The notes under the pieces were generated by a model, which saw only the letters and a list, made by a program, of their open reading frames with translations, had not been told where the DNA came from and ran no database searches. Below are positions 24,577-54,149 of a stretch of DNA of 64,000 nt, piece after piece (the first letter of the stretch is position 1; each line of letters starts with the position of its first letter). Source of the stretch: an uncultured Syntrophales bacterium (GTDB lineage: Bacteria; Desulfobacterota; Syntrophia; Syntrophales; JAAYKM01); assembly GCA_964494155.1 (NCBI GenBank), contig CAZBQX010000005.1, positions 7,713-71,712 of the forward strand. The letters run 5' to 3'. The position numbers were made by a program, and so were the translations under genes.

Positions 24577-25044
24577 ATGAACGTCAAATTTATTAACCCA
24601 TTTTTAGAAGGAACGACCAGTGTCCTGAACACCATGGCTTTTATCTCGCCCCGTGCAGGGAAACCCTATTTAAAAAAAGACAGCATGGCCGTGGGTGATA
24701 TTTCCGGCATCATCGGTTTGACCGGTGCCGCCCGGGGGTCTCTGGCGCTCAGCTTCAGCAAGGGTTGCATCCTGAAAATCGTTTCCAACATGCTGGGTGA
24801 GGAGATTAACGAGATCAACGGGGATATCAAAGATGCCGTAGGGGAGTTGACCAACATGGTTTCCGGGGTGGCCCGGAAAAAACTCGAAGCGGAAGGCCTG
24901 AATGTCACCGCCGCCATCCCCACCGTTGTTTCGGGTCCGAGCCATTCCATCGTCCACGTGCTGGGAGGCCCCAGCATCATCATCCCCTTTGAGATCGATG
25001 AGGGGCCCTTCGTTGTTGATATCTGTCTGTCCGATGGGACTTAA
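24577..25044 (+). CDS. cheX: CheY-P phosphatase CheX
   Basis: INPFLEGTTSVLNTMA...GDISGIIGLTG...DAVGELTNMVSGVA is a typical CheX pattern. Confidence 0.8.
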   Translation: MNVKFINPFLEGTTSVLNTMAFISPRAGKPYLKKDSMAVGDISGIIGLTGAARGSLALSFSKGCILKIVSNMLGEEINEINGDIKDAVGELTNMVSGVARKKLEAEGLNVTAAIPTVVSGPSHSIVHVLGGPSIIIPFEIDEGPFVVDICLSDGT

Positions 25045-26827: not shown

Positions 26828-26829
26828 GA

Positions 26830-27381
26830 TTAATCCAATCCCCCTCTTTTAGCCCTCAGGATTTCCCTTTCCTTCTCAAAGACAAAGCGCACGATTTCAT
26901 TCCGAATATGGTCATCCATATCCAGAAACTTCAGGGCAACACGATATTCATTTTCGCTTTTCGCGCAGGACAGCACCTGTCCATAGAGTTGAACGGCTAC
27001 CGGAGGAAGAGAAAAAAGAATGATTTTAACTTCCACGATGGCGCCGACGGCCAGGGCGGCGTCGGAAAGAAAATCCATGCCGTTTGCGCTGATTGTGACG
27101 GGTTTCGACGGCAGTGCTTCGAAGCCGCCCTGATAAACCGCAATCATCCGCATAACCGCATCAAGTTTGGCGTTGATGGTCTTCAACCACACGGATAAAT
27201 GGGCGTCGGCGATTTCGGGTAAAGTGGAAAGTTCACTGTAAATCGGTTCTCCGAACAGTTTCGCTGTGGGTACAGGTCGTTCTTCCGAAGAGAGAACCCG
27301 CGAACTGAAAGGGAGCATGGTATGAACGCGCGAAAACTCTCTTTTGTTTGCCGATGCTTCTTTCTGACTCTGTTTTTTCAT
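26830..27381 (-). CDS. PilZ domain protein (putative c-di-GMP receptor), first gene of the pilZ-motA-motB operon
   Basis: RxxxR motif (REFSR, aa 14-18) and a [D/N]xSxxG-like motif (TISANG, aa 96-101). It ends 2 nt before motA. Confidence 0.65.
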   Translation of the reverse strand: MKKQSQKEASANKREFSRVHTMLPFSSRVLSSEERPVPTAKLFGEPIYSELSTLPEIADAHLSVWLKTINAKLDAVMRMIAVYQGGFEALPSKPVTISANGMDFLSDAALAVGAIVEVKIILFSLPPVAVQLYGQVLSCAKSENEYRVALKFLDMDDHIRNEIVRFVFEKEREILRAKRGGLD

Positions 27382-27759: not shown

Positions 27760-27775
27760 TGGTACGTAACTTGCT
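27760..27775 (+). promoter_or_regulatory. Sigma-54 promoter upstream of the SPOR/TPR gene
   Basis: TGGTACGTAACTTGCT against the consensus TGGCAC-N5-TTGCW, with correct spacing. The -12 element lies 65 nt upstream of the ATG at 27839. Confidence 0.55.
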
Positions 27776-27838
27776 CTTAAAGCTGGGAGATGAACTTGGC
27801 AAGAGGTATGGGGATTCAATCCTGTTGCTGCGATTTAC

Positions 27839-30843: not shown

Positions 30844-32056
30844 ATGGAGGATATCCATCTTTTAAAAGAGTCTTTTGATGCCTTTCAGGAGTCGTCCACC
30901 CGCCTGCAGGAGGTTTACGCCGCGCTGCAGGAGAAAATCGTCCAGACCGGCGTCGAATTGGAAGCGAAGAATGCCGAACTCACGCGCATCAGTGCGGAAC
31001 GGGAAGATATGAAAAATTATCTTCAGCGAATTCTGGAGAGTTTGACGACGGGCGTGCTGGTTACGGACAGCCGGGGCAGGGTTAAAATCGTCAACCGTGC
31101 CGCCGAGAATTTTCTTGGCATGCGGGCGGTGGAACTGCAGGGTACACCTGTGAGTCAAATATTTGGCGACAGGGATGCCGCTTCCGTTGAAGCAGAGTCA
31201 AATGCCCGCCGCCGGATCACGCTGCACGGCCGGGTGCTGGAAATATTCTCTGCCGCGATTCATGCCGTTGATGGGTCGCCGGGAGATACCGCCTGGGTCA
31301 TCTACGACATGACGGGAACCTTGAAACTTGAAAAACAGGCCCGTCACCTCGAAAAAAACGCGGCCATGCTGGAAATGGCCGCCCGAATTGCCCATGAGGT
31401 CAGGAACCCGCTGGGGAGCATCGAACTTTTTTCATCCCTTTTACTGCGCCATATCCGCGAACCCAGACAGCGGGATTGGATAGACCAGATCATCCAATCC
31501 GTCAAAAATATCGATCAGAAGATTGAGGAACTGCTGCAACATGCCAGGACCGTGGAGCCCCTCATGGAGATGATGAATATCCACGATATTCTAAGGGAAC
31601 TGCTGCTTTATTCCGACCGGATCGCCGACGGCGGCCACATTTTTCTCTCCGTGGAATACGCCGGACAGGAACCGTTTATCCGGGGAAATCCGGCGATGAT
31701 CCGCCAAATTTTTCTGGGCATGGTGCTCAACGCCCTCAAAAGCATGCCGGAAGAGGGACACATCCGGATCCGTACAAAGATCGAGGGCAGCGGCACGCGG
31801 GAACCGACCGTTCGGGTCAGTCTCGCGGATACGGGTACGAACGGTTGCAGCGATCCCATCCGCCGTTTTTTTAATCCCGACGACGACGATGATCGCTTGG
31901 CCGGTTTTAATTTTGCCGTGATTCAGAACATTGTAACGATGCACAAAGGCTCTCTCCAGGCCGAGAAAGGCCCCGGGGATACCATGTCATTCAGCCTGGT
32001 TTTTCCCGTGGTTCGGGTCCAGCCAAGGGAAGTGAATCCGGAAGCGGGTGGAAAAG

Positions 32057-32067
<11 letters not shown>
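30844..32067 (+). CDS. Soluble PAS-histidine kinase (FlrB/FleS-like) with an atypical ATP-lid region
   Basis: Coiled coil, then a PAS-like segment (ILESLTTGVLVTDSRGRVKIVNRAAENFLG) and the H-box ARIAHEVRNPLGSI, with N-box MVLNALKSM. The G1/G2 regions are unusual (DTGTNG; DDDDDRLAGFNF). It overlaps the downstream activator gene. Confidence 0.8.
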
Positions 32068-33472
<1,405 letters not shown>

Positions 33473-33518: not shown

Positions 33519-33559
33519 AAATAATCAGCATCTTAAAAAAATAAAGGGGAGGATGCATT

Positions 33560-40554: not shown

Positions 40555-41835
40555 TTAATACTCAACCCGGAATACGGTCAGCGGTTTCTTTTTCCCCTTG
40601 ACCCGAAGCGGCGGCAGGTCCTTGAAGGTCTTCAGCCCGGGTATGTCCGTGTCCAGTTCATCAATCGCGTCTTTAACCGCCTGGGTTATAAGAATTTCGT
40701 CATTCCCCGCCATGGACTCGATACGTTGCGCCACATTGACGGCGTCGCCGATGACCGTATAATTGATGTGATCTTCCGAGCCGATATAACCGGCAACCAC
40801 GTCCCCCGTATTGATGCCGATGCCAATTTTCAGGTCATCAGGCCATTTTTTATGGTGGTTCGCTTCATTCAAAAGATGCAATTCCCGGATGATTTCGATG
40901 GCGGTTTTGACGGCGTGGACAGGGTCCTGGGCCTGAGAAATCGGGGCGCCGAAAACGGCCATCACGCCGTCTCCGAGCAATTTGTCCAGGGTCCCCTCGT
41001 TTCTGAAAATAATGGGAGTGATATGTATAAAGAAATCATTAAGAATTTCAACGACTTTTTCCTGGTCAAGTTTTTCCGAAAGCGACGTGAAGCCATGAAG
41101 ATCGGCAAACAGGATCGTCGCACGTTTCCGTTCCCCACCCAGACGCAGAATGCCCTTGTTCTTCAGAATTTCACTGGTGATATTTTTAGAGAAAAAGCGA
41201 CTGAGAAGAAAACGCTGGTTCTCTTCCTTGAGCATCTGGGAATACAGGCGGGATAAAATAATGGACGTCACCATCTGATCGGCCACAAGACTGAAAAAGC
41301 TGATCTGGTTCTGATCGATGCTGTTTAGAGAAGGAAAGACCAGATTAAGTACGCCCATGGTCCGCCCGTTATGTGCCAGGGGAACGCTCAGCAGGGATTG
41401 GGCCCCGAATCGTTTCTTCTCTTCCGGAGAACAGGTTTCGGTGAGGTTTTTCTTGATAGTCACCTGATTCTGGACCACGGCCTGTTCCGCCGATTGCTGA
41501 TAGAGACGGTGATAATCCCCGGGTAGATTTGTTCGATCCTGGTCGTTGAGCGACGCCATGACCTCAAGTTGTTGCGACTCTTCATTGAGGAGCATTAAAG
41601 AGATGTGTTCCGTGGCGAAGTATTTTTTAATGATATGGAGTTGTTCCGTAAAGAGCATGATCTTGTCGGTAATACCCGTCAGGCGGAGCATATCCACCAG
41701 CTCTTTGATTACGGATAACTCCTTGATCTTATTTTCATAATTGCTCCTCATCTTGAGGAACTGTTTTTTAAACAACTCCGCTTCATCAACGACAGGCAAA
41801 GGATTGTTTTTCTGACTTCTGCGTTCCGGGGTCAT
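40555..41835 (-). CDS. GAF domain + class III adenylate cyclase
   Basis: ATILFADLHGFTSLSE, GTLDKLLGDGVMAVFGAP and YTVIGDAVNVAQRIES. The Lys in DKLLGDG and the Thr in YTVIGD suggest adenylate specificity (class IIIb-like). The N-terminal half is GAF-like. Confidence 0.85.
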   Translation of the reverse strand: MTPERRSQKNNPLPVVDEAELFKKQFLKMRSNYENKIKELSVIKELVDMLRLTGITDKIMLFTEQLHIIKKYFATEHISLMLLNEESQQLEVMASLNDQDRTNLPGDYHRLYQQSAEQAVVQNQVTIKKNLTETCSPEEKKRFGAQSLLSVPLAHNGRTMGVLNLVFPSLNSIDQNQISFFSLVADQMVTSIILSRLYSQMLKEENQRFLLSRFFSKNITSEILKNKGILRLGGERKRATILFADLHGFTSLSEKLDQEKVVEILNDFFIHITPIIFRNEGTLDKLLGDGVMAVFGAPISQAQDPVHAVKTAIEIIRELHLLNEANHHKKWPDDLKIGIGINTGDVVAGYIGSEDHINYTVIGDAVNVAQRIESMAGNDEILITQAVKDAIDELDTDIPGLKTFKDLPPLRVKGKKKPLTVFRVEY

Positions 41836-43736
41836 CGCGTTGCTCCGTCGGGGCCAAAAACCATGGAAGGCGAGTTTTCATCAATGATGCCCCGGATCTC
41901 TTTCACCATGCTTTCGATCATGTCTTGATCGAAGTGGTCGAATAAGCGAGACAGCAATAACCAGTGACCGTAAGTCATGCCATGGTGGATGTGGTTTTCA
42001 TCCGTCGGCAGGCGGTCGATATCCATGGCTCGGTAATAGAGGTAATTGGCCAGGCCCGTTACCGCGGCAAGATCGGAATGGTCCGGTGCGTTGAAAGGCT
42101 GATGATGGTAGGCGATGGCATGGACAAGCGTTTCCGGCAGGTTCCAGCGGATGGCCAGGGAACTCCCGACCATGGCATGGTCCATGCCGTAAAGATCTTC
42201 TTCCAGTTCGAAAAGCGATTGTCCCTCGATTTCCGCTTCCTGATACGTTTCTCGGTAAGTATCCGTAAAATGATCAATAAAAAAGATTTTCCCCACATCA
42301 TGCAGCAATCCGGCGGAAAAAACGCCTTCATCTTTTTGCCCGGACAATTTACGGTACAGGTGCTTCACGATCATGGCGGTGCCGAGGGAATGGTGCCAGA
42401 GCAACTGCGGGTCAATAATATCCCGGAGATGCTTTGAGTCAAAAACTCTTGCCGCTGCCAGCCCGAAAGCGATATCCACAATCTCATTGGTTCCCAGGAG
42501 AGAAATTGCATATTTTACCGAGCTGATTTTTTGTGGGTAGCCATAAAAAGCGGAATTGACCGTTTTCAGCAGTTTCGAGGTTAGGGCCGGATCTTTGAGA
42601 ATGATGTCGGCCAATTCGGATCCCGAAGAATAGGGATGGGATGCGATGTTGAATATCTGGCTGGCGACGGTCGGCAGAGTCGGCAGGTCATCCGACTGAT
42701 TAAGCATGGTGGCGATTTTATCCATCATGACGGATCGTTGAGCCATGACGGATTCGAGTTCCATCTGCTGAATGATGGCGCTGAAATGACGTTCCGCTTC
42801 CGAGGCGGGCGGAGGTTTTACCTGTTCTTTAATCATTTTTTCCAGCTCCGGTACCAGCGGTGAATCAAAAGGCAGACGGGCCAAAAATTCCTTCTGGTCC
42901 GTATGGGGGATCTGAACCAGACCCAGCCAGAGCATATCTGGCGTCATGCTGAGCAGCCGGTTGAAAATGCGCCCCCGGCCGCGGATGAAACAAAGCTGCA
43001 AAGGGGTCCATTGGTCTTCAGTGTGCGCTAACGGTATCGAGTTCGACACGACGGCTTTGTCAGCCCGGTCTTCCCCCGGAGTTGGACTGCCTTCCGTCGC
43101 GTCCCTGGATAACGTTGTCAGATAAAGCAGCTTCCCGAGTGTTTGACCTTCTTCCGGAAAGACGGCATATCCACAGGTGAAGGCCACATTTTCGCCCAGC
43201 ATTTTTTTCAGGCCGCGGATGGCCTTCTGCTGTATGGGGCCTACACCATGCCGGTCGGTCGCAAAACCAAGGACGACAAAGCGATAATCATCGATGCCGA
43301 TTAACGTATCGCTTTCCCGAAAGATTTCTCCCAACTGGTCCTCAATATTTCCCAGCATGGAGGGATAAACGGGGAGCGATGATCCTGAGCCCACGTGAAA
43401 TACCAGAATGGACATACTGCTCCGGCTCCGCAGCACCTTGCTGAGTTCGCCGCGGATACGGCGATCATGTTTTTGCGCAATGAAATAAGGCGTGTCGTCG
43501 TATTGCACGACCGGTTCCATCGTCGTAAGGCAGCCCATCTGTGCCATGGCCCGTTGTGCCGCCTCGGCTCGGCTTTGGGTGTCGAAAGTCCGGACGACCC
43601 GGGGGGCACTGGTTAACAGGGGACGGATTTCATCGATGGTAAGACCGATTTCTTTCTGAAGGGCGTATGCGACTTTTTTTATAGCCGTACCGGCTGCAAA
43701 ACCCTGAAATGTCAGGCGGTAGCGAAGATCATTCAT
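41832..43736 (-). CDS. Degenerate GGDEF-like domain + HDOD domain protein
   Basis: 634 aa. The middle region SILVFHVG...SDTLIGIDDYRFVVLGFATD looks like a GGDEF fold with GIDDY in place of GGDEF. The C-terminal HDOD region reads LPTLPTVASQIFNIASHPYSSGSELADIILKDPALTSKLLKTVNSAFYG...AGLLHDVGKIFF. Confidence 0.75.
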   Translation of the reverse strand: MNDLRYRLTFQGFAAGTAIKKVAYALQKEIGLTIDEIRPLLTSAPRVVRTFDTQSRAEAAQRAMAQMGCLTTMEPVVQYDDTPYFIAQKHDRRIRGELSKVLRSRSSMSILVFHVGSGSSLPVYPSMLGNIEDQLGEIFRESDTLIGIDDYRFVVLGFATDRHGVGPIQQKAIRGLKKMLGENVAFTCGYAVFPEEGQTLGKLLYLTTLSRDATEGSPTPGEDRADKAVVSNSIPLAHTEDQWTPLQLCFIRGRGRIFNRLLSMTPDMLWLGLVQIPHTDQKEFLARLPFDSPLVPELEKMIKEQVKPPPASEAERHFSAIIQQMELESVMAQRSVMMDKIATMLNQSDDLPTLPTVASQIFNIASHPYSSGSELADIILKDPALTSKLLKTVNSAFYGYPQKISSVKYAISLLGTNEIVDIAFGLAAARVFDSKHLRDIIDPQLLWHHSLGTAMIVKHLYRKLSGQKDEGVFSAGLLHDVGKIFFIDHFTDTYRETYQEAEIEGQSLFELEEDLYGMDHAMVGSSLAIRWNLPETLVHAIAYHHQPFNAPDHSDLAAVTGLANYLYYRAMDIDRLPTDENHIHHGMTYGHWLLLSRLFDHFDQDMIESMVKEIRGIIDENSPSMVFGPDGATR

Positions 43737-43910
43737 GGTGTCAGGCTATGCTGCAATGGGTTCGAATAATTGGTTGCATTTTCCCCCGGAAAATCAACAT
43801 GATAAGGGCCATTGGTAGATACAAACTCACGCCGCAGACTATAAGAGAAAAAATGTCTGGCGTCAAGGAGATAGACCGTCTTCGCAGGCCATTCCCGGGA
43901 TGGTTTCCCT

Positions 43911-45356
43911 TTAGACGACATCATCATTAACCTGAGTATCAATTTCCAGGGGATCGGTATGTCCATAAGCCTTAATTTCGCGTCCGCCGTCTTTTTTCGC
44001 CTCACGGATGAGTTGCTGCGCCTGGGAAATCATTTTTTCGGGGATGCAAGGCGCAATGCGGTCGTAGTGAACAACCGCAATGCTCGCAGTCAGTTTCCCG
44101 TGTTCCAGTTGTTCTACCCCGGCAAACTGGTAATTTTCTATGAACGCGAGGAGTCTCCGGGCGACAATAAAGGAGTCTTCTTCCGTTGTATCGGTTAACA
44201 GGATCGCAAATTCGTCGCTGCCGTATCGGACCAGGATGTCTGAACCGCGGGTGGTTTCACGCAGGAAATCAGCGATACTTTTAATACAGATATCGCAGTT
44301 TTGCGTGCCGTTGATCCGGGCAAATTCGTCGAAATGGTCGATGTCCGCCATCAGAATCGAGAAAACGATCTGATGACGGTCGGCACGGCAAATCTCCTGG
44401 GCCAGTCTGATCTGAAAATAGGATCGGTCAAACAGCCCGCTTTGCGTATCCAGAAGGCCAACCCTTACCGGAGAAGGTTTTTCAAGATTGCGGATGTGAT
44501 CCAGCAGATCTTCGTTGGTGCAATAATGCTTATGGACCAGTTCTTCAATTTGTCCGACCAGACTGAGCCGTTCGCCCATTGAAATGTCTTTACCCGTCAG
44601 GATGATGACGGGGACATCTGCTGTTTGGGGATTGTTTCTCAGGGCGGAAAACATCTCAAAATAGCCGATATCGGATACCGCGAGGTCAAGGATGATAAGA
44701 TCGGGTGTGGCATGAAACGCGTCGTCCAAACCTTCCTTGCCTGACTGCGCGCAGGTGATGCGATAACCGGCCGCGGTGAGCATGGCTGTCAAGGACTCCA
44801 GAAAGTCGCGGTCCTGGTCGATGCAGAGAATGTTGCGCACGCCTTTCTTTTTATGAGAAACGGTGCTGTTCAAAGCACGGCAAGCCGGATCGGATGTATC
44901 TGAAGGTTTCTCATCGACGGCTGCGGTCAGGTTTCCCGAAACCTCTCCGGTTCGCCTGCGCACTTGGCGTATTGTCTGAATACGACTATGGCGAATCATA
45001 TTGAGAAAGAAGCGAATTCCCTGGTATTCTATAATCTCAGCGTGGGGAGGTTTCAGGGCCAGGAGTTCAGAAGGGCTGATTCCACTTTCGGGAAGATGGA
45101 AAATGATTTCGGGCATGGTCCGCATGGCTTCGGAGAGGCTTGAGAAAATGGGAATATTCCTTGCGCCGGCCAAATCAAAACTGGAAAACTCGCCGTTCAC
45201 ATCAACAATCCCTGAAAGGATCATCCCGGATTCATCAACGATCGTATCAAATAAATACGTCCCCAAATCACCGGCGCCGACAATCATGACCTTGATCATA
45301 TCATTTTGATTCACCTGCCCTTTGTCCTCCTTACCTTTATATATATGGAGCAACAA
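43911..45356 (-). CDS. Rossmann-like N-domain + REC + GGDEF (GSDEF) diguanylate cyclase-type response regulator
   Basis: N-terminus KVMIVGAGDLG (GxGxxG). REC domain ILCIDQD...LIILDLAVSDIGYFEM...VIILTGKD. GGDEF domain DTQSGLFDRSYF...ADIDHFDEF...RGSDILVRYGSDEFAILL, with RxxD five residues upstream of GSDEF. The true start may be M20 (45299) or the GTG just upstream of it. Confidence 0.8.
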   Translation of the reverse strand: MLLHIYKGKEDKGQVNQNDMIKVMIVGAGDLGTYLFDTIVDESGMILSGIVDVNGEFSSFDLAGARNIPIFSSLSEAMRTMPEIIFHLPESGISPSELLALKPPHAEIIEYQGIRFFLNMIRHSRIQTIRQVRRRTGEVSGNLTAAVDEKPSDTSDPACRALNSTVSHKKKGVRNILCIDQDRDFLESLTAMLTAAGYRITCAQSGKEGLDDAFHATPDLIILDLAVSDIGYFEMFSALRNNPQTADVPVIILTGKDISMGERLSLVGQIEELVHKHYCTNEDLLDHIRNLEKPSPVRVGLLDTQSGLFDRSYFQIRLAQEICRADRHQIVFSILMADIDHFDEFARINGTQNCDICIKSIADFLRETTRGSDILVRYGSDEFAILLTDTTEEDSFIVARRLLAFIENYQFAGVEQLEHGKLTASIAVVHYDRIAPCIPEKMISQAQQLIREAKKDGGREIKAYGHTDPLEIDTQVNDDVV

Positions 45357-45650
45357 TCCATATGCAAATTTTATGCTTGCCGGATCACCTATATCACATG
45401 CCGCGTTTAAATTCTCTTATTTGATGAGGGGCGGGGTATAGTCCTTCATCTTGATGGCGACGTTTTGGTTGATCGCTGACACAAGAAAGGACGTTTGAGG
45501 CATGTCGGCATATCTTTCCTCCCTGAAGGGTCTTGCCGCCGTGTTTTGTCTTGGCCAAAAGGGGAATATTTTTCCCGGTGAAGGTTTTTCACAAAAGGAT
45601 GAATATTGCAACATATTGTTATTTATAGATATATATTTGTTATCCGCTCA

Positions 45651-45666
45651 TGGCATGGCTCTTGCT
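45651..45666 (+). promoter_or_regulatory. Sigma-54 promoter of the fliK-flgD-flgE operon
   Basis: TGGCATGGCTCTTGCT has correct spacing. The -12 element lies 37 nt upstream of the ATG at 45702, which is preceded by GGGAG. Confidence 0.65.
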
Positions 45667-45701
45667 CTTTCCTGTACAAAGAATCATTCAGGGAGACGAA
45701 G

Positions 45702-47423
45702 ATGATCCATATCGCCCCACAAAATAACGGAAAAGTGACGGTCGCGGACCTGTTCGGCGGATCGGGAAAAGACAAGACGCAGCACGCTGCCGCGGATATG
45801 TCGAATCAGGGTGCGAATCTTCTGCCGTTTGGCGTGATTTTAGCAAAAATGGCAAACCGGGCCTCCCAGGGCCAGGATGCAGTGTCAGCGGCCGCCGGCC
45901 GGAAAGCCGCACAGGTGGAAGATATGGCCGCAGGATGGGGCGTCGACATGAAGCAGCATGCACCGCTTGTCCTGTTAAAAATGAAGGACAACCTTTCGGG
46001 GCAGGAAGAAGACGTTTTCGCCGTGGAAGTCGATCTTCAGGCGTTGCTTCAGGCGTTGCAGAGTGGAGAAGGGACGGGGGATGATCCGGCCCAGACGGAA
46101 AACGCTGCTGCTGCATTGTCCGCATATCTGTCGGCGCTCGTTTCGACCTTACAAAACCGGACCGATGCCGGAACTTCCACGCAAACGGCGCTTGAAGATG
46201 CCGGCAGCCAGGGAGACGTTCATCCGAAAATCCAGGTGAGTGCTGAAAAGACAAAAGAGCTCATGAATCAATTATTGAACCACAGCGCTGACAATTCCAG
46301 TGAGGCAACGGATAAGGGTCATAAAATTCTGCTGACCCTGCCGCAGGAGTTGCTCAAAGGATTTGTGATCAACAAAAACGGTCAGCCCCATTTTTCAGTG
46401 AATGGGATGGATGATACCACCGCTGTGCTGCTTCCTGCCGATGGGGTTGATAAGGCCGTTACGGGTCAACCGCTTTCCATGACAAATACCGCCGGGAGCT
46501 TGGATAAGGAAGGGACACCTTTCCAGGTTATTCGGTTAAATGTGCAGGCGTCCTCCGCCTCGCCACAAGGATCTTTGGCTGCAGCAGCTCAGGAATTGCA
46601 GAAAAATAATCAGGCAACCCCGGCAACCCCGGGCGCCGATGCGGCGATTACGGACAAAGAAGGAGACCTGACAGATAATCCTTTCCGTCATGAAATACTG
46701 GTAAAAAACGCCGGGGAGCGTGAGGCGCGGAACATCCTGACCACTGCGGCGCCCGTCGCCGACGGGGCGTCTTCCGAAAAGGGGAATCCCCAAAATGCGG
46801 CGTCGGCCGAGCAGGATCCGATGACGGCCGCCAAAGGTACCGGGACGTTGGACGACATGGTCCTGCAAGGGGAAGAGAAGGCGAAAAACGCACCCATTGT
46901 ATCAGGCAAGGAAAGCACGCATTGGGTCCCCTTTGCCGGGGCGACGTCCCCACAGTTGGCCCCCGAATCCGGAACCGCCCTGAAAGGCGTTTTCATCCCC
47001 ATGGATCGGGTGATCAGTGAGGCCGGCAAGATTCTGGAAAGTGGTGCGGGAAAGGTACAGATGACCCTGCAGCCGCCGAACCTGGGGACGATCAACATGG
47101 AAGTCGTTGTCCGTAACAACCGGGTGGATCTGGTCCTGACGGCGAATCAAGCTGATGTGCAACAGATCCTCCAGGCCAACGCCGACCAGCTTAAAAATGC
47201 CCTCAGCAACCAAGGGTTCCAGATCGATCAGTTGTCCGTCCTGTTGAAGCGGGAGAGTTTTGGTTTTAACCTAGGGGGCCATTCCCTCTGGCAGGACGGC
47301 ACAGGGCAGCAACCCAGCCACGGCAACGGATCAACCGGCCGTGACGCCATATCGGTGCCGGAGGCGGAAACAATGACTCCCCGCTGGGACTATGGCAACG
47401 GCACCATCAGCATCTTTGTCTGA
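45702..47423 (+). CDS. fliK: Flagellar hook-length control protein FliK
   Basis: C-terminal Flg_hook domain LQPPNLGTINMEVVVRNNRVDLVLTANQADVQQILQANADQLKNALSNQGF, with a low-complexity A/Q/G-rich N-terminal ruler. The ATG at 45702 is preferred to the track start at 45606. Confidence 0.8.
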   Translation: MIHIAPQNNGKVTVADLFGGSGKDKTQHAAADMSNQGANLLPFGVILAKMANRASQGQDAVSAAAGRKAAQVEDMAAGWGVDMKQHAPLVLLKMKDNLSGQEEDVFAVEVDLQALLQALQSGEGTGDDPAQTENAAAALSAYLSALVSTLQNRTDAGTSTQTALEDAGSQGDVHPKIQVSAEKTKELMNQLLNHSADNSSEATDKGHKILLTLPQELLKGFVINKNGQPHFSVNGMDDTTAVLLPADGVDKAVTGQPLSMTNTAGSLDKEGTPFQVIRLNVQASSASPQGSLAAAAQELQKNNQATPATPGADAAITDKEGDLTDNPFRHEILVKNAGEREARNILTTAAPVADGASSEKGNPQNAASAEQDPMTAAKGTGTLDDMVLQGEEKAKNAPIVSGKESTHWVPFAGATSPQLAPESGTALKGVFIPMDRVISEAGKILESGAGKVQMTLQPPNLGTINMEVVVRNNRVDLVLTANQADVQQILQANADQLKNALSNQGFQIDQLSVLLKRESFGFNLGGHSLWQDGTGQQPSHGNGSTGRDAISVPEAETMTPRWDYGNGTISIFV

Positions 47424-48163: not shown

Positions 48164-49696
48164 ATGTCGAGTGCACTTTGGATCGGAACAACGGGTTTAA
48201 CGGCCAGTTCAAAACAGATGGATGTCATCGGCAACAATCTGGCCAATTCCAATACCCTGGGTTTTAAGGCCGGGAACACCTATTTTGCCAGCATGCTCAA
48301 TCAGAGCCTCTCCGGCGGTTCGAGCGGAACCATGCAGGTCGGTCAGGGGGTTGCGATTGCGGCCGTGGCGACCCAGTTCGGCCAGGGGTCTTTCGAGTCG
48401 ACGGGAAACGCGACGGATCTCGCCATCGACGGGGAAGGCTTTTTCATTCTCAGGGATACGGAAGGCGCCCAGTATTTCACCCGGGCCGGAGCATTCCATG
48501 TGGATAACGAGGGTTATCTGGTCGATATGACCGGTTACCGGGTCCAGGGGTATAACCTCTACATTGCCGGCCAGGAAGAGGTTGAGACCGATATTCGTCT
48601 GCAGAATGTTCAGTCCGCCCCCCGGCCTTCGACGACCATCGGCGTCGGCGCCAACTTAAATGACGCCGCCGATCCTGGAGAACGGTTTAATGTGACTCAG
48701 ACGGTCTTTGATTCTCTGGGACAGTCCCACAGTCTGGCCATCAACTTCATGCGGACCGAGGGCACCGGCATGTGGGGATTCGGTACAACCCTGGATGGAA
48801 GCAATAACGGCACCAACTCGACGAACGGTGTGATATTTGATGCCAACGGCAATCTGGAATCGTTTTACACGGGAGCCTTCGGTTCCGGACCGACCGTGGC
48901 AGGCGGCGGGGCGATCACGACGTCGACGATTAACCGGCCGGGCCAGATCTACAAGGATACGACGGGTAATATTGTTTTAACCCGCGGGGCAACGCCCACA
49001 AGCTGGGCGATTACCAGCAACGGCGGTTACAGCAATATGGCCATTGTTGAGAACACGGCAAGTACCTTATCTGTCGATCTGGATGGCAATGGCGGCGCGG
49101 ATATTACCTACGATCTCGGTGCAGGTTTTGCTGCCGGAAGCACGATTACCTTCACGCTGGATAACTCAGTAACCGCTGCGGCCAGTGATATCAGCATGAC
49201 TTTTGGCGCCTTGAGTAACGGCGCCACCATCGGCACGGGGAATCAGCTCACCTGGAATGTCGTAGGCGATGATGCACCGACCATCACAGGCTATGCCAGC
49301 TCCTCCGTGGTGAAGTCCTTAAGCGACGACGGGTACAGTTCCGGTGTTCTGAAGTCCCTTTCCGTTGACAAAGACGGGATTATCAACGGGTTCTTCACCA
49401 ACGGTCAGAGTGCGGCCCTGGGGCAGGTCCTGCTGGCAACATTCCCTGACTTGTCCGGTCTCCAGAAATCGGGGAATTATTTCATCGAAACCGTCCGGTC
49501 GGGTGAAGCCCTCCGTAATCGTGCCGGGTCGGGCGGTCTGGGACAGACCATGTCCAACTCTCTGGAAATTTCCAATACGGATGTGGCCAAGGAATTCATT
49601 AACATGATCAGTGCCCAGCGCGCCTATCAGGCCAGCGCCAAGGTCATAACGACAGCGGATACGCTCCTCAGCGTCCTGATGGATATCAAACGCTAA
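48164..49696 (+). CDS. flgE: Flagellar hook protein FlgE
   Basis: N-terminus MSSALWIGTTGLTASSKQMDVIGNNLANSNTLGFK, and C-terminus SNTDVAKEFINMISAQRAYQASAKVITTADTLLSVL. Confidence 0.9.
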   Translation: MSSALWIGTTGLTASSKQMDVIGNNLANSNTLGFKAGNTYFASMLNQSLSGGSSGTMQVGQGVAIAAVATQFGQGSFESTGNATDLAIDGEGFFILRDTEGAQYFTRAGAFHVDNEGYLVDMTGYRVQGYNLYIAGQEEVETDIRLQNVQSAPRPSTTIGVGANLNDAADPGERFNVTQTVFDSLGQSHSLAINFMRTEGTGMWGFGTTLDGSNNGTNSTNGVIFDANGNLESFYTGAFGSGPTVAGGGAITTSTINRPGQIYKDTTGNIVLTRGATPTSWAITSNGGYSNMAIVENTASTLSVDLDGNGGADITYDLGAGFAAGSTITFTLDNSVTAAASDISMTFGALSNGATIGTGNQLTWNVVGDDAPTITGYASSSVVKSLSDDGYSSGVLKSLSVDKDGIINGFFTNGQSAALGQVLLATFPDLSGLQKSGNYFIETVRSGEALRNRAGSGGLGQTMSNSLEISNTDVAKEFINMISAQRAYQASAKVITTADTLLSVLMDIKR

Positions 49697-49712: not shown

Positions 49713-49750
49713 GAGGCGTTTCCCGTCCCCTGGGGGACGGGAAACGCCTC
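49713..49750 (+). terminator. Strong stem-loop after flgE
   Basis: GAGGCGTTTCCCGTCC-CCTGGG-GGACGGGAAACGCCTC is a perfect 16-bp inverted repeat 17 nt after the flgE stop. No long T-tract follows it. Confidence 0.65.
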
Positions 49751-49924: not shown

Positions 49925-49940
49925 TGGTATGGTCCTTGCT
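49925..49940 (+). promoter_or_regulatory. Sigma-54 promoter of the second stator/fliL operon
   Basis: TGGTATGGTCCTTGCT has correct spacing. The -12 element lies 56 nt upstream of the GTG start at 49995. Confidence 0.6.
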
Positions 49941-49994
49941 TAAAAATGGCTGTATTGAACTCTGAGAGGGGTCCATCCGGCCCCGGGGGTATGT

Positions 49995-50756
49995 GTGGAT
50001 ATCGCGACCATTGTCGGAATTATTGGTGGATTCAGTCTGGTTCTTGTTGCCATGGGTTGGGGCGGAGGGCTGTCCTGGTTTTTTGACATCCCTGCTCTGA
50101 TGATTGTCCTGGGTGGCACCTTCGGGGCCGTGTTGATCAACTATCCCCTGTCGACGGTCTTTAAGGTGATACCGGCGGCGAGAAACATCTTCTTCAAACG
50201 GGAGACGGAAGTCCAGGATTTGATCAACCTTTTTGTCGAGATGTCCGGTATTTCCCGGCGAGAAGGACTGCTGGCCCTGGAACGGATGGAGGCGAAAATC
50301 AAGGATCCGTTTCTGTCGAAGGCGGTCGGTCTGGTGCTGGACGGTGTCGATCCGACGGATGTGGAAATCATTCTGGAGACGGAAATCCAGTCGGTTGCGG
50401 AAAGGCATCGCATTGGTGCGGAGATCTTTACAACCATGGGAAACTTCGCGCCGGCCATGGGACTTATGGGTACCTTGATCGGGTTGGTCAAAATGTTGAT
50501 GCAGATGAGCGATCCCGCTCAGATCGGTCCTTCCATGTCGCTGGCCCTGATTACGACTTTTTATGGGGTGATTCTGGCGAACCTCATCTTCCTGCCCATT
50601 GCGGGGAAATTGAAGACCCAGAGCAGTCACGAACTCTTCATAAAATATCTGATGATGAACGGAACCCTGGCCATGCAGTCGGGTGATCATCCCCGGATGG
50701 TGAAACAGAAACTGCTGTCTTTTGTCGCACCGCGGGAAAGGGGGGTGGCATTTTGA
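49995..50756 (+). CDS. motA: Flagellar stator protein, short MotA/PomA/MotP-type (GTG start)
   Basis: 253 aa with four TM helices. MotA_ExbB-type C-terminus APAMGLMGTLIGLVKML...SLALITTFYGVILANLIFLPIAGKL. Confidence 0.85.
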   Translation: MDIATIVGIIGGFSLVLVAMGWGGGLSWFFDIPALMIVLGGTFGAVLINYPLSTVFKVIPAARNIFFKRETEVQDLINLFVEMSGISRREGLLALERMEAKIKDPFLSKAVGLVLDGVDPTDVEIILETEIQSVAERHRIGAEIFTTMGNFAPAMGLMGTLIGLVKMLMQMSDPAQIGPSMSLALITTFYGVILANLIFLPIAGKLKTQSSHELFIKYLMMNGTLAMQSGDHPRMVKQKLLSFVAPRERGVAF

Positions 50757-51421
50757 GACCCAAAATGCCTTATACCAATCAAAGTGTTGGCAGTCGTGTT
50801 GAACACTGGCAAACGGTTTATTGTTCCTTTGCCCTGATCCTGGTCGTCTTCTTTGTCATGATGGTTTCCTATTCCATTGTGTCCGGGAAAGGCATGAAAG
50901 CCATCCGGAAACATTTTGCCCAGGGGTCGTCTCTGCACGCACCGGGATCGTCCATGAATCCCCTGTCGGGGATTCCCTCGGAGGAGGCGGGAGATGCGCC
51001 GGCTATTCTGATTCAAAATGCCACGACGCGGTTTGGTCTGGGCGACACGGTAAGTGTCAGGATGGCTGCCGGGGGGATCGATGTCGTCATGAAGGATCGG
51101 GTCCTTTTTGCGGAAGGTGCTGTGGACGTACAGAAGGGTATCTACCCTTATTTGAATGTGATTGCCGACGTAGCCGCCAGAAACGGGCTGCATGTTCAGG
51201 TGAAGGCCCGTGCCGCGGGGTTACCCGAGGGAAGCCAGACGGACCAATCCCCCTGGGCGTTGTCCTCCCTGCGGGCGGTGAATGTCATGCGGTATTTTCT
51301 GGCCTATGACCGGCTCGCAGTTGATCAGGTGAGCGCAGCGGGTTCGGCCGCCGTGACGGGGCCGCAGGGCACGCCCGGTGGGGACAATGAAATCGAACTG
51401 CATTTAAGCGTCAATGAATGA
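50753..51421 (+). CDS. MotB-like protein lacking the conserved channel Asp, with a degenerate OmpA-like domain
   Basis: The TM segment WQTVYCSFALILVVFFVMM aligns with the MotB W-x-V-x-Y-A-D-F motif, but Ser replaces the Asp. The C-terminus keeps PWALSSLRAVNVMRYF but lacks the GYG...NRRVE ending. Confidence 0.65.
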   Translation: MRPKMPYTNQSVGSRVEHWQTVYCSFALILVVFFVMMVSYSIVSGKGMKAIRKHFAQGSSLHAPGSSMNPLSGIPSEEAGDAPAILIQNATTRFGLGDTVSVRMAAGGIDVVMKDRVLFAEGAVDVQKGIYPYLNVIADVAARNGLHVQVKARAAGLPEGSQTDQSPWALSSLRAVNVMRYFLAYDRLAVDQVSAAGSAAVTGPQGTPGGDNEIELHLSVNE

Positions 51422-51434
51422 TTAGGGGTCAAGG

Positions 51435-52145
51435 ATGAACAAGCCGCGCATCGGGTATAAGAAAACCATGATCATCGCAGGGGCGGAGAATCTCGGCGGG
51501 AGGTGGCTGGTAACCTTCAACGATATGATCACCCTGATCCTGACGTTCTTTGTCCTGATCCTTTCCATGTCCGATATGGACAAGCCCAGCATCGATCAGA
51601 TATCCCAGTCCGTCAGTGAAGCGTTCGGCGTCGGGGGAATCCGCAAACCCCTGGTGACGCCGAGAACGGCTGAACCTTCTCCCGACCGTGGTCAGATTCA
51701 GGCAGATAGGAATCCGGATATGACGCGGATGGCGATCCAGATTGCCTCTCTTCCGGGCATGGAAGCCCTGACGACACCGGGGGGAATACGCATCACGATG
51801 AATGAAAAGATGCTCTTCGCGCCTGATTCGGATGTGCTCAGTGAAAACAGCCGGCAGATGCTTTTGGCATTGGCTCCGGTGCTGAATACATGCGATGCCT
51901 TGATTACGGTGGAAGGCCATACGGATAACCGGCCGGCAGAGGGCATACGGTTTCCTTCAAACTGGGAACTGTCTACGGCCCGGGCGGTGAGTGTTGTCAC
52001 CTTTCTGGCAGAAAGCGGTGGGGTTGCTCCCGAACGGTTATCCGCCGTCGGATATGGCGACACAAGGCCCCGTGCAGCGAATGATGATGAAAAGAACCGT
52101 CAAATGAACCGTCGGGTGGAAATTAAACTGAAATTTCAGAAATAA
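51435..52145 (+). CDS. motB: Flagellar stator protein MotB/PomB-type (canonical)
   Basis: WLVTFNDMITLILTFFVLIL has the Asp. The OmpA-like C-terminus reads GHTDNRP...SNWELSTARAVSVVTFL...GYGDTRP...NRRVEIKL. Confidence 0.85.
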   Translation: MNKPRIGYKKTMIIAGAENLGGRWLVTFNDMITLILTFFVLILSMSDMDKPSIDQISQSVSEAFGVGGIRKPLVTPRTAEPSPDRGQIQADRNPDMTRMAIQIASLPGMEALTTPGGIRITMNEKMLFAPDSDVLSENSRQMLLALAPVLNTCDALITVEGHTDNRPAEGIRFPSNWELSTARAVSVVTFLAESGGVAPERLSAVGYGDTRPRAANDDEKNRQMNRRVEIKLKFQK

Positions 52146-52158
52146 CGAGAGGGAAGCC

Positions 52159-52659
52159 ATGGCAAGGGAAAGGGAAGAAAAAAATGAAGAAGCCGTACAG
52201 GCTGAACCGGAGGTAAAGGGGAAAAAAGGACTGATCAAGTGGATCATTATCGGCGTTGTGGTCCTCGCGGTCCTCGGGGCCGCGGTCGGCGGCGGGCTGT
52301 ATGTGTTCAACAATATGATGGGGGATAAAAAACACGCGGATAAGGCCCCGCCGATCATCGGGACCATCTGGAGCCTGGATCCCTTTATCGTCAATCTCAT
52401 GGATAACAGTGGAGAACGCTATTTGAAGGTGGTCATGCAGTTTGAGGTGGCGGATCCGGCGATTATCCAGGAACTCGAACTGGTTAAACCGCGGGTACGG
52501 GACAGCATTCTGGATTTGCTGTCCTCCAAAACCCTGGCGGATTTGACTGACACGCCGGGCAAGCAGCGGCTCCGGGAAGAAATCATCCTGCGGGTGAACA
52601 ATTCGATTTCCCGGGGGCGGATTGCCAAAGTTTATTTTTCGGAATTTGTGATCCAGTAA
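52159..52659 (+). CDS. fliL: Flagellar basal body-associated protein FliL
   Basis: An N-terminal TM helix, then LDPFIVNLMDNSGERYLKVVMQFEVADP...VRDSILDLLSSKTLADL...KVYFSEFVIQ. Confidence 0.85.
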   Translation: MAREREEKNEEAVQAEPEVKGKKGLIKWIIIGVVVLAVLGAAVGGGLYVFNNMMGDKKHADKAPPIIGTIWSLDPFIVNLMDNSGERYLKVVMQFEVADPAIIQELELVKPRVRDSILDLLSSKTLADLTDTPGKQRLREEIILRVNNSISRGRIAKVYFSEFVIQ

Positions 52660-52696: not shown

Positions 52697-53698
52697 ATGT
52701 CACAGATATTATCTCAGGAAGAGGTCGATGCCCTGCTCCGGGGAATTGCCGGCGGCGATATCGAGACGGAGATCGAGGATATCCATGATCCATCGGCGGT
52801 AACCCTCTATGATTTGACCAGTCAGGATCGGATCATCCGGGGCCGGATGCCGACGCTGGAGATGACCAACGAAAAGTTCGCCCGGATGTTTCGCACCACC
52901 TTGTCCTCTCTGATGCGCAAAGTGATCAGTGTGAATTCCATGTCGGTCAACATGCTGAAATTCGGGGAATTTCTCAAAACCCTGCCGGTGCCGACCAGTC
53001 TGCACCTGTTCCGCATGGATCCGCTGCGGGGAAACGCGATCTTTGTCATGGAATCAAAGATTATCTTTACCCTGGTGGACATTCTCTTTGGCGGTACGGG
53101 GAAAGAATTTTTCAAGGTCGAAGGCCGTGAGTTCACGGCCATTGAGAACAGTCTGATTAAGAAAGTTGTATTAAATGCTCTGGTTGACCTGGAAAAAGCC
53201 TGGAAGACCCTCCTTGATATCAAGGTGCAGTATCAGAGATCGGAGATCAATCCCCAGTTTGCCCAGATCGTGCCGCTGACGGACGTCGTGGTGGTGGTGA
53301 ATTTTGAAATCGAAGTCGAGTACAACACGGGCATCATGTCCCTGTGTATTCCCTACGCCAGCCTTGAACCGATTCGGGACAAGCTTCAGGCGGGTTTTCA
53401 GAGCGAGCAGTTGGAAGTCGACAAGGTGTGGGCGGAGCGTTTCAAGCAGACGCTCACCCTGTCCAAGGTCGATCTGGTGGTCGAACTGGGGAAGGCGCAT
53501 GTTAAAAGCCGGGACGTCGTCGATCTGAAGAAGGGGGATGTCATTGTCCTGGACAAGTACGCGTCCGATCCCCTCTTTGTGCTGGTGGAAGGGATGCCCA
53601 AATTCATGTGCGTACCGGGTATTTCCAAGGGCAGTCAGGCCGTACAGGTATCACATGTTATCAGTCGTAATGAGGTAATTGATTATGGAACAGAATGA
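52697..53698 (+). CDS. fliM: Flagellar motor switch protein FliM
   Basis: N-terminal CheY-P binding peptide MSQILSQEEVDALLRG, followed by the FliM middle domain and a C-terminal SpoA-like domain. Confidence 0.9.
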   Translation: MSQILSQEEVDALLRGIAGGDIETEIEDIHDPSAVTLYDLTSQDRIIRGRMPTLEMTNEKFARMFRTTLSSLMRKVISVNSMSVNMLKFGEFLKTLPVPTSLHLFRMDPLRGNAIFVMESKIIFTLVDILFGGTGKEFFKVEGREFTAIENSLIKKVVLNALVDLEKAWKTLLDIKVQYQRSEINPQFAQIVPLTDVVVVVNFEIEVEYNTGIMSLCIPYASLEPIRDKLQAGFQSEQLEVDKVWAERFKQTLTLSKVDLVVELGKAHVKSRDVVDLKKGDVIVLDKYASDPLFVLVEGMPKFMCVPGISKGSQAVQVSHVISRNEVIDYGTE

Positions 53699-54149
53699 AA
53701 TCGATGCATTGATGAGAGAAATGGACGGAGGCGAGGGCGCATCAGCGGTTGCAGCGCCTGTGGAGGATGAAAATCTGAGCTGGGATGATGTTCAGGAGGA
53801 GATGGAAGCGACCCGGAAAGAGGACACGCCGACAGAGGTGGCCAGTGTCAGTTTCGGTGAATTTCAGTCTAACGCTGCCCCGAAGGCAAATATGGATATC
53901 GATTTCATCCTGGATATCCCGTTGACGCTGACGGTGGAGCTGGGGCGGAGCAAGATGCTGATCAGCGAACTGCTCCAACTGGGGCAGGGGTCTGTGCTGG
54001 AGCTATCCAAGCTGGCGGGAGAACCCATGGACATCTTCATCAACCAGCGTCTCATTGCCCGGGGCGAAGTGGTCGTCGTCAATGAGAAGTTTGGTGTCCG
54101 ACTGACGGACATTGTGTCGCCCGCCGAACGGGTCAACCGTCTCCGTTAG
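53679..54149 (+). CDS. fliN: Flagellar motor switch protein FliN (with an N-terminal EIDAL-type peptide)
   Basis: C-terminal SpoA domain LDIPLTLTVELGRSKMLISELLQLGQGSVLELSKLAGEPMDIFINQRLIARGEVVVVNEKFGVRLTDIV. The N-terminus reads MIMEQNEIDALMRE. Confidence 0.9.
   Translation: MIMEQNEIDALMREMDGGEGASAVAAPVEDENLSWDDVQEEMEATRKEDTPTEVASVSFGEFQSNAAPKANMDIDFILDIPLTLTVELGRSKMLISELLQLGQGSVLELSKLAGEPMDIFINQRLIARGEVVVVNEKFGVRLTDIVSPAERVNRLR

Follow-up and report, generated by a model that had tools for sequence, protein, structure and literature searches.

We report a gene, motB', that lies between motA and an ordinary motB and encodes a naturally occurring MotB paralogue in which the channel Asp is missing; paralogues of this kind are widespread and under purifying selection. 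It was found in a window of 64,000 nucleotides (the whole stretch of DNA that was analysed) from an uncultured Syntrophales bacterium. The operon data suggest that the torque generator of the motor has a third component, so far undescribed. Every MotB is generally taken to need its channel Asp, and in the current rotary model the two Asp of the dimer act in turn; a natural paralogue that lacks this residue is a direct handle on whether both axle chains must bind ions. Sulfate reducers and syntrophs may also regulate or gear their stators in lineage-specific ways. Present annotations of the genes of this family (B' genes) read 'MotB', 'OmpA family protein' or 'hypothetical protein', so that comparative stator counts in these lineages are inflated or misread. 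The literature searched, which excludes most subscription journals, contained no account of a motA-motB'-motB operon with an Asp-less MotB.

The features of the locus are listed in Table 1. The module consists of three genes, with a single A gene (motA) and two B genes. The motA stop overlaps the TTG start of motB' (TTGA), GGAAAGGGGGG lies 7 nt upstream of this start, and motB' and motB are separated by 13 nt. The database gene call for motB' starts at Met5 and gives 218 aa, but the Shine-Dalgarno spacing, and the fact that this codon overlaps the stop of motA, led us to keep the TTG start (222 aa). Look-up found no database record of the exact 222-aa product. The first-pass annotation of this DNA had described the module as a second stator locus, and this was borne out by the E. 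coli-type motA-motB pair at 25041-26827 on the minus strand.

Table 1. Features of the flagellar and stator loci, in positions of the window.
Feature	Position	Strand	Basis or detail
flgE (hook protein)	48164-49696	+	Pfam Flg_bb_rod, LlgE_F_G_D1, FlgE_D2, Flg_bbr_C
Hairpin 3' of flgE	49713-49750	+	17 consecutive pairs, dG -40.1 kcal/mol
Sigma-54 type promoter consensus	49925-49940	+	TGGTAT-N5-TTGCT
motA, PomA-type A subunit, 253 aa	49995-50756	+	Pfam MotA_ExbB 103 bits
motB' (Asp-less MotB paralogue), 222 aa	50753-51421	+	Alignments, AF2 model, Foldseek
motB, canonical B subunit, 236 aa	51435-52145	+	Pfam MotB_plug 55.8 bits, OmpA 66.7 bits
fliL	52159-52659	+	Pfam FliL 88.5 bits
fliM	52697-53698	+	3' of fliL, same direction
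fliN	53679-54149	+	Same direction as fliL, fliM
pilZ, other stator locus of the window	26830-27381	-	
motA, E. coli-type, other stator locus	25970-26827	-	
motB of other stator locus	25041-25970	-	WKVAYADF
Sigma-54 enhancer-binding protein gene	32036-33469		

A strong stem-loop had been noted ahead of the stator genes, and the folding energy of the hairpin 3' of flgE (-40.1 kcal/mol; z -7.3, with 0/200 shuffles equally stable) confirmed it. The intrinsic-terminator scan did not call this hairpin, and an intrinsic terminator is unsupported by the scan because a U-tract is absent; without that tract the hairpin may be a terminator, an attenuator or a stabiliser of the mRNA end. Downstream of it, TGGTATGGTCCTTGCT at 49925-49940 is a perfect match to TGGYAY-N5-TTGCW, 55 nt upstream of motA. 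The window holds four such perfect matches, all on the + strand, against an expectation of 0.19. For two of the four (49925 and 27760) the downstream ORF was checked, and that of the match at 27760 is a TPR/SPOR ORF. The motif at 49925-49940 fits -24/-12 elements of the TGGCAC-N5-TTGCW type and is a predicted sigma-54 dependent promoter. The first-pass call of such a promoter before the stator genes thus agrees with an exact consensus, and a sigma-54 consensus also stands upstream of motA in 24/25 related loci.

The A subunit had been called PomA-type, and its nearest matches agree. MotA reaches the Pfam MotA_ExbB threshold, its best solved relative in the PDB is Vibrio PomA (E 3e-58), and its best NCBIfam match is PomA (the NF006527 equivalog) at 254.5 bits, albeit under the 341-bit cut-off. 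It keeps the Thr of the MIGT and LTT motifs, putative Na+-site residues that align with PomA, and its dN/dS is 0.015-0.055. In the TM3/TM4 stretch aligned to PomA (~150-205), an alignment read by eye, there is no Asp or Glu except the loop residue in MSDP. The second B gene is canonical, as had been proposed: its product has the TM-helix motif WLVTFND and the C-terminal motif NRRVEIKL, both Pfam domains (MotB_plug and OmpA) are above threshold, and in NCBIfam it matches the MotD/MotB family/MotS-like models.

The TM helix of MotB' (residues 19-43) is WQTVYCSFALILVVFFVMMVSYS, with Ser25 at the position of the channel Asp. An HMM alignment placed Ser25 on the channel Asp of the solved C. sporogenes MotB (6ysf), and MAFFT/hmmalign alignments against >100 Asp-bearing MotBs placed it in the same column, which upheld the earlier reading of Ser for Asp. 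W19, Y23, F33-F34, S39 and S41 are in register with 6ysf MotB and the >100 MotBs, giving the W...Y...LIL..FF..S.S pattern of MotB. Another acidic residue at the functional position was also sought, and no D or E is present in residues 19-43. A substitute acid in the helix was rejected, as none occurs in the window protein and the residue after the Trp (Q, E or D across the family) is inconsistently acidic.

Taken from sequence and model together, MotB' appears to be built throughout like a MotB, running from a short, basic tail in the cytoplasm through a single TM helix, a plug-like helix and a linker to an OmpA-like fold. The AF2 model (pLDDT 70) has a helix at 18-43 and a plug-like helix at 45-57, with pLDDT <50 for residues 44-67. 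The Pfam MotB_plug score is 23.3 bits (cut-off 24), a threshold that the Gly-type relatives described below pass, and the Pfam OmpA score is 19.8 bits (cut-off 27.2). Foldseek matched the model to the periplasmic domains of the MotB-like DVU_2228, MotS, MotB and PomB, with probability 1.0 and a TM-score of ~0.7 on the target. The OmpA-like fold spans ~100-219; it lacks the GHTD and NRRVE motifs and retains the Arg of L-S-x-x-R-A. The OmpA-like end had been described as degenerate, and for the MotB' of the window this holds, but it is a speciality of the Syntrophales clade of the window, which has lost these two peptidoglycan-binding motifs, and not a family trait: every one of the 140 members of the Gly type keeps GHTD and NRR, as do about half of those of the Ser type.

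An exhaustive HMM search returned many 50%-identity clusters that are Asp-less. These Asp-less paralogues include a YCS type (Ser at the Asp position), a Y[ST]G type (Gly, with 110 further clusters) and a third type, the Asp position across the family being Ser or Gly and rarely Ala or Cys. All family members found come from metagenomes or MAGs, and a genome-collection scan with the narrow pattern YCSFALILV matched 5 Syntrophales MAGs. The gene arrangement was highly consistent: motA lies directly upstream of the Asp-less B' gene in 31/32 related loci and, among loci with enough flank, an Asp-bearing motB lies directly downstream of it in 32/32, fliL follows the module in 28/28 and flgE precedes motA in 23/23. 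The order in every related locus examined was flgE-(flbD)-motA-...-motB-fliL-fliM-fliN, and members down to ~26% identity keep the same operon position. Whether the motA-motB'-motB set recurs in related genomes had been raised as a check, and many sulfate-reducer and syntroph relatives carry it. The first-pass annotation had also described the stator genes as inserted into the fla order between flgE and fliL. This was wrong, because the arrangement is common to all related loci and, in operons of this type, the site is an ancestral one; the order flgE-motA-motB-fliL-fliM-fliN is found in spirochaete and clostridial fla operons too. For a large group of flagellar operons of the Desulfobacterota type, the three-gene module is the ancestral state. 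DVU0050-DVU0048 of Desulfovibrio vulgaris (motA, a gene for an OmpA-family protein, and motB) probably has the same layout as the window module. In that organism DVU0047-0043 is a sigma-54 flagellar operon (PMC4641369).

MotB' and MotB share ~19-22% identity and only MotB has the Asp. A neighbor-joining tree separated the B' clades from the clade of partner B proteins, which indicates an old, co-inherited pair; given this separation and the low identity, a recent tandem duplicate of the adjoining motB was rejected. The partner MotB of an Asp-less B' carries an F-N-D motif (W-L-x-T-F-N-D) in 32/32 cases, and each of three independently chosen F-N-D MotBs (3/3) was found after an Asp-less B'. 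One event, passed on by inheritance, may account for this link in place of co-adaptation.

The dN/dS of MotB' (0.11-0.20) was compared with that of MotB (0.12-0.14), and its degenerate OmpA-like part gave 0.08-0.23. Over 42 loci, mean pairwise identity of the TM helix was 0.69 for MotB' and 0.77 for the partner MotB, against 0.40 and 0.44 for the whole proteins, whilst the plug region of B' was poorly conserved (0.23 identity). In the narrow clade, 12 consecutive TM residues of MotB' are invariant, and Cys24-Ser25 is invariant throughout the YCS clade. The residue after the Trp (W+1) is Q, E or D in the B' family and hydrophobic in canonical MotB; it is Gln in the MotB' of the window and swaps freely with Glu among close relatives. 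The identity seen in the TM helix fits a helix packed against protein and not a lipid anchor, and such conservation makes a mere membrane anchor unlikely.

As MotB' is conserved and selected, an accessory or heteromeric role is reasonable; the earlier proposal of such a role stands in that MotB' is a real paralogue, co-encoded with a complete stator and under selection. The first-pass annotation had listed a regulatory or plug-like subunit, a heteromeric B subunit and an inactive placeholder, and the data are compatible with all three alike. We tentatively favor motB' being the functional third gene of a sigma-54-driven motA-motB'-motB set, encoding a B subunit that does not bind ions and sits in the MotA pentamer, most likely in a heterodimeric axle with MotB. 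Its helix would occupy the place of a MotB helix inside a pentamer of the single co-encoded PomA-type MotA, most likely beside one MotB chain (MotA5-MotB'1-MotB1), giving an axle with one ion-binding carboxylate. The neutral Ser or Gly would act like a permanently 'protonated' Asp, so that MotB' would conduct no ions itself, and the neutral chain may change the gating of the stator unit, its coupling of ions to rotation or its resting state. In the Syntrophales clade of the window, only the MotB chain would anchor well to peptidoglycan, because MotB' lacks two of the three conserved binding-pocket motifs. A more speculative form, which we regard as distinctly unlikely, is an obligate MotA5-MotB'1-MotB1 stator in energy-limited anaerobes, in which, with a single Asp in the axle, each turn of the MotA ring would take half the ions, or the neutral chain would gate the ring. 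If so, the 5:2 rotary motor would have an 'economy gear' of natural origin, and two carboxylates would be unnecessary for rotation.

Neutral replacements of MotB Asp32 in E. coli reportedly abolish function and are dominant-negative (Zhou et al. 1998, cited in PMC9389320), which argues against the turning of complexes with such a chain and counts against a heterodimeric axle, our best explanation. The poorly conserved and poorly modelled plug region also counts against it, as does the chance that the F-N-D link arose only once. The dominance of the Asp32 mutants favors inert stator units, a somewhat doubtful alternative in which MotB' homodimers in MotA pentamers (MotA5-MotB'2) conduct no ions and compete with MotA5-MotB2 for rotor sites, and so might brake the motor, idle there as placeholders, or form a sealed pool of spare MotA. 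The full MotB architecture and conserved TM helix of MotB' are in keeping with this, and most family members have an intact peptidoglycan-binding domain and so could dock like real stators. However, the clade of the window lacks the GHTD and NRRVE that a docking placeholder would need, MotB' has no regulatory domain, and it would be made along with MotA and MotB, from a gene that lies between theirs in one operon, whenever the stator is made; a constitutive, stoichiometric self-inhibitor is hard to rationalise. We also consider it unlikely that MotB' lies outside the MotA pore as a membrane-anchored OmpA-like accessory, comparable to MotY of the T-ring or to partners of FliL, that recruits or stabilises MotA5-MotB2 round the rotor. 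Such a scaffold would explain the retained OmpA-like fold and the fliL gene that belongs to the neighborhood, and lineage-specific OmpA-like accessory rings are said to occur in many motors (MotY, the Campylobacter disk proteins), but no part of MotB' is better conserved than its TM helix, and this helix follows a MotB-specific pattern, which is unexpected for a plain anchor, and known scaffolds such as MotY lack a MotB-type TM helix or plug.

The invariant Cys24-Ser25 pair of the YCS clade, or the polar W+1 residue that stands where canonical MotB has a hydrophobic one, could let MotB' couple ions non-canonically, as the B subunit of an alternative-ion stator sharing MotA. This is highly improbable: the Gly-type sister clade has Ser/Thr-Gly in place of Cys24-Ser25, the free exchange of Gln and Glu at W+1 leaves no conserved protonatable or cation-binding group, and the MotA TM3/TM4 stretch offers no Asp or Glu beyond the MSDP residue. 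The loss of the essential Asp, and in this clade of two peptidoglycan-binding motifs as well, is what would be expected of a functionless, decaying duplicate of motB, but we give this next to no credence: every locus keeps an unbroken reading frame, the dN/dS values are low even in the degenerate OmpA-like part, and the family is deep (~26% identity) with members at the same position and a strongly conserved TM helix. A motB' pseudogene was accordingly rejected on dN/dS, which indicates purifying selection.

The canonical MotA5MotB2 and PomA5PomB2 stators (6ykm, 6ysf, 8brd/8bri) resemble the window module in the PomA-like A subunit, the standard MotB and the MotB domain order and fold of MotB'. 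The module differs from them in having three genes and not two, in a MotB' without the ion-pathway Asp and, in the clade of the window, in the absence of GHTD and NRRVE from MotB'. Like MotB', the MotY protein of the Vibrio and Pseudomonas T-ring has an OmpA-like domain in the periplasm and is either encoded alongside stators or acts on them. However, MotY is a secreted periplasmic protein with no MotB-type TM helix or plug, whereas MotB' has a MotB-type TM helix and a plug-like helix. The neutral Asp32 mutants of E. coli MotB (D32N etc.) and C. jejuni MotB D22N (6ykr), which serves as a protonation mimic (PMC9389320), are alike in carrying a neutral residue at the Asp position of an otherwise intact MotB. 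Those are laboratory loss-of-function alleles, whereas motB' is a natural, selected gene beside a wild-type motB.

One motA with two motB genes in an operon is also found in Aquifex aeolicus, where motA is followed by motB1 and motB2 (PMC4525482). These two Aquifex proteins, MotB1 and MotB2, are 97% identical over their N-terminal and TM regions and differ in their periplasmic parts, and chimeras with either TM region rotated the motor with MotA in E. coli (PMC4525482), so both proteins presumably keep the channel Asp. In contrast, the MotB' and MotB of the window differ in their TM helices (~19-22% overall identity) and one of them is Asp-less. The gliding motor of Myxococcus likewise combines one MotA/TolQ-like subunit with two different B-type subunits, although AglQ and AglS are TolR-like, without an OmpA domain, non-flagellar, and both described with a mid-membrane Asp (PMC9389320). 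A heterodimer of AglQ and AglS is predicted within the AglR pentamer (AglR5-AglQ-AglS; PMC11761067), which gives a heteromeric axle of the kind proposed here for MotB' and MotB a predicted precedent.

The window encodes a stator operon in which motA is followed by two motB-like genes. The first of these, motB', specifies a MotB-like protein with Ser at the position of the channel Asp, the mid-membrane ion-binding residue of MotB (D32 in E. coli). The three genes probably form a tight, translationally coupled unit, as the TTG start of motB' overlaps the motA stop (TTGA), with GGAAAGGGGGG 7 nt upstream, and a gap of 13 nt separates the motB' stop from the motB start. They head a predicted sigma-54 operon continuing into fliL, fliM and fliN; the site upstream of motA (TGGTATGGTCCTTGCT) matches the consensus TGGYAY-N5-TTGCW exactly, and a sigma-54 consensus was also found 5' of motA in 24/25 related loci. 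Four perfect consensus sites occur in the window, all on the + strand (0.19 expected). The perfect 17 bp hairpin 3' of flgE has no U-tract and was not called by the terminator scan; most relatives also carry stable hairpins between flgE and motA, at varying distances. It may protect the end of the flgE transcript rather than terminate transcription.

Features of the window discussed in the text
Feature	Position	Strand	Remarks
cheX	24577-25044	+	adjoins pilZ-motA-motB
pilZ-motA-motB	25041-27381	-	E. coli-type; MotB WKVAYADF
sigma-54 site	27760	+	5' of TPR/SPOR ORF
TPR/SPOR protein	27794-30742	+	983 aa; N-terminal SPOR, many TPR repeats
sigma-54 activator	32036-33469		response-regulator type
sigma-54 site	33503	+	42 nt 5' of unannotated ORF start at 33545
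three signalling genes	40558-45356	-	upstream of flgD-flgE
sigma-54 site	45651	+	within long ORF 45606-47423
flgE	48164-49696	+	Pfam
hairpin	49713-49750		dG -40.1 kcal/mol, z -7.3
sigma-54 site	49925-49940	+	5' of motA
motA	49995-50756	+	253 aa; Pfam
motB'	50753-51421	+	222 aa, MotB-like ORF; Pfam
motB	51435-52145	+	236 aa; Pfam
fliL	52159-52659	+	then fliM and fliN; Pfam

MotB' fell just short of both Pfam thresholds (MotB_plug, 23.3 bits against 24; OmpA, 19.8 against 27.2) and met no NCBIfam cut-off. When aligned by profile to the C. sporogenes MotB structure (6ysf), MotB' had W19, Y23 and F33-F34 in register and Ser25 on the channel Asp; alignments made with MAFFT and with hmmalign to a set of over 100 Asp-bearing MotBs agreed on this placement. 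This confirmed the Ser reported in the first-pass annotation, and with no acidic residue in residues 19-43 (WQTVYCSFALILVVFFVMMVSYSIV) the helix offers no substitute acid. In the AlphaFold2 model (mean pLDDT 70) a TM helix spans residues 18-43 and a low-confidence helix (45-57) lies at the plug position, followed by a disordered linker and a well modelled alpha/beta domain. Residues 57-67 (RGSSLHAPGSS), right behind the plug-like helix, are conserved only in a narrow Syntrophales clade. Foldseek matched the alpha/beta domain with probability 1.0 to every periplasmic domain listed, namely those of a Desulfovibrio MotB-like protein (3khn), B. subtilis MotS, Helicobacter and Salmonella MotB and Vibrio PomB. 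The top match, 3khn, is a structural genomics entry for a periplasmic fragment only of D. vulgaris DVU_2228, a "putative MotB like protein". MotB' lacks the GHTD and NRRVE motifs and retains the Arg of L-S-x-x-R-A. It resembles a MotB in architecture, with a putative plug helix and an OmpA-like fold, but fails on the defining feature, the Asp.

MotA passed the Pfam MotA_ExbB threshold; its top NCBIfam match was PomA (under that model's cut-off), among solved structures it is closest to Vibrio PomA (E 3e-58), and it keeps the Thr of the MIGT and LTT motifs, so the earlier label "PomA-type" is fair. Coupling to sodium would be putative. MotB is an ordinary MotB, with both Pfam domains over threshold, the TM helix WLVTFND and the C terminus NRRVEIKL. 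The locus had been called a second stator locus, and the window does carry another, the E. coli-type pilZ-motA-motB. Its PilZ-domain gene lies immediately 5' of motA, which suggests that this stator has its own YcgR-like c-di-GMP brake. Between both stator loci, just 5' of kinase and sigma-54 activator genes, lies the TPR/SPOR gene with its own sigma-54 site; its product could be a periplasmic motor-associated scaffold. Of the three signalling genes, one encodes a REC-GGDEF protein whose motif is GSDEF in place of GGDEF, one an HDOD/HD protein and one a GAF-adenylate/guanylate cyclase.

Loss of the Asp proved more general than the single locus first described. A word-indexed search returned 26 close relatives of MotB', all from metagenomes or Syntrophales-like MAGs, among which YCSFALILVVFF is invariant down to 36% identity. 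We then aligned to the profile the best 150 matches of an exhaustive HMMER search over 1.84 billion cluster representatives. These comprised three close clusters, dozens of 50%-identity clusters in which Ser replaces the Asp (Ser-type, W-[QE]-x-x-Y-C-S-[LF]), others in which Gly does so (Gly-type, W-E-x-x-Y-[ST]-G-F), and a third Asp-less set also without the Trp (e.g., FVVMMTSLS, FIVSYTALA), which retains intact OmpA motifs. Another 43 and 110 Asp-less clusters came from two additional searches by profile or sequence. Those with source names came from Syntrophales, Syntrophobacterales, Desulfobacterales and Desulfobacteraceae MAGs, and existing annotations read "hypothetical protein," "OmpA family protein" or "flagellar motor protein MotB." Gly-type members keep GHTD in 140/140 cases and NRR in all but one; about half of the Ser-type members retain both, and both are gone from the window's clade and some neighbors. 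From this distribution, Asp loss is the trait of the family as a whole, and degeneration of the OmpA end, correctly noted for MotB' at first pass but clade-specific, is a later, lineage-specific step. The residue after the conserved Trp (residue 20 in MotB') is Q/E/D across the Asp-less family and L/M in canonical MotB, and this polar residue is a second signature of the family.

A metagenome scan seeded with the helix of B' (the Asp-less paralogue in relatives) gave 55 loci, parsed by script into 43 distinct Asp-less loci. Among loci with enough flank to be counted, motA lay directly 5' of B' in 31/32 and an Asp-bearing motB directly 3' in 32/32, confirming that motA-motB'-motB is conserved; fliL followed this motB in 28/28 and flgE lay upstream of the module in 23/23. 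The scan also caught 11 Asp-bearing matches, all of them simple motA-motB pairs lacking flagellar neighbors, which served as an internal control. Related Syntrophales loci share the order flgE-motA-motB'-motB-fliL-fliM-fliN, as do more distantly related members of both types, Ser and Gly, examined on long contigs; in some of these flbD follows flgE. Hence, although the first-pass annotation described the sequence of the locus correctly in every detail, its stator genes are not "inserted": as these constant neighbors show, the operon natively has this order in the group. The arrangement resembles the flgE-flbD-motA-motB-fliL order of spirochaetes and clostridia. The partner MotBs carry W-L-x-T-F-N-D in 32/32 loci, Asn immediately preceding the channel Asp in every one, and F-N-D MotBs picked only for long contigs lay directly after a Gly-type B' in 3/3 cases. 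This association may reflect co-adaptation, or merely shared descent.

Against three Syntrophales relatives, dN/dS ratios, which are rough because synonymous distances are near saturation, were 0.11–0.20 for MotB' (0.08–0.23 for its degenerate OmpA-like part alone), 0.12–0.14 for MotB and 0.015–0.055 for MotA. A decaying motB' gene was excluded. Across 42 B'/B pairs, mean pairwise identity was 0.69 (MotB') and 0.77 (MotB) over the 23-residue TM segment, and 0.40 and 0.44 over the whole protein. So constrained a helix probably packs against protein and is more than a mere anchor. In a neighbor-joining tree, indicative only as it is without bootstrap support, B' clades were separate from the partner-MotB clade and branching orders among loci were broadly parallel, which would fit an old, co-inherited pair and speak against repeated recent duplication.

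MotB' combines what appears to be a full MotB architecture and a strongly constrained helix with the absence of the ion-binding carboxylate. Its gene appears obligately to accompany a single motA and a single canonical motB, with which it is predicted to be co-transcribed, and the protein would sit at a MotB position inside the MotA pentamer. The assembly that we tentatively favor is a heterodimeric axle, MotA5-B'1-B1, in which the neutral chain could change gating or the ion-to-rotation ratio. The motB' gene lies between the genes of both putative partners, with probable translational coupling to each, B' was not found apart from them (motA 31/32, motB 32/32), and the partner MotB has the distinctive F-N-D motif. 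The predicted AglR5-AglQ-AglS complex is a precedent for a heteromeric axle (PMC11761067), and replacing the Asp by a small neutral residue has served experimentally to mimic protonation (C. jejuni D22N; PMC9389320).

Inert homodimeric MotA5-B'2 units, whether as brake, placeholder or reserve, seem to us rather unlikely: a constitutive, stoichiometric inhibitor of its own motor would be odd, and the peptidoglycan-docking motifs are gone in the window's clade, even if the reported dominant-negative behavior of E. coli MotB Asp32 mutants supports such units. We consider it doubtful that MotB' is a scaffold outside the MotA pore, a role that fits poorly with its conserved helix. Non-canonical ion coupling by MotB' is highly improbable, given its poor fit with both the Ser-Gly of the sister clade and the Q/E alternation beside the Trp. 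Leaving insertion aside, the accessory or heteromeric subunit proposed at first pass was a reasonable idea, and the heterodimeric axle is our preferred form of it.

In literature covering few subscription journals we found no account of a three-gene stator operon with an Asp-less MotB, so calling it undescribed is provisional. The words aspartate, D32 and Desulfo- are absent from the main text of a recent MotAB diversity survey (PMC12505986). The closest gene-order precedent is motA-motB1-motB2 of Aquifex, where the N-terminal and TM regions of MotB1 and MotB2 are 97% identical and chimeras built with the TM region of one or the other supported rotation in E. coli (PMC4525482). The closest architectural precedent is AglRQS, in which both B-type subunits are described as retaining the Asp (PMC9389320). 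MotB' is most aptly classed as a putative third subunit of B type, one that does not bind ions, in an otherwise known machine.
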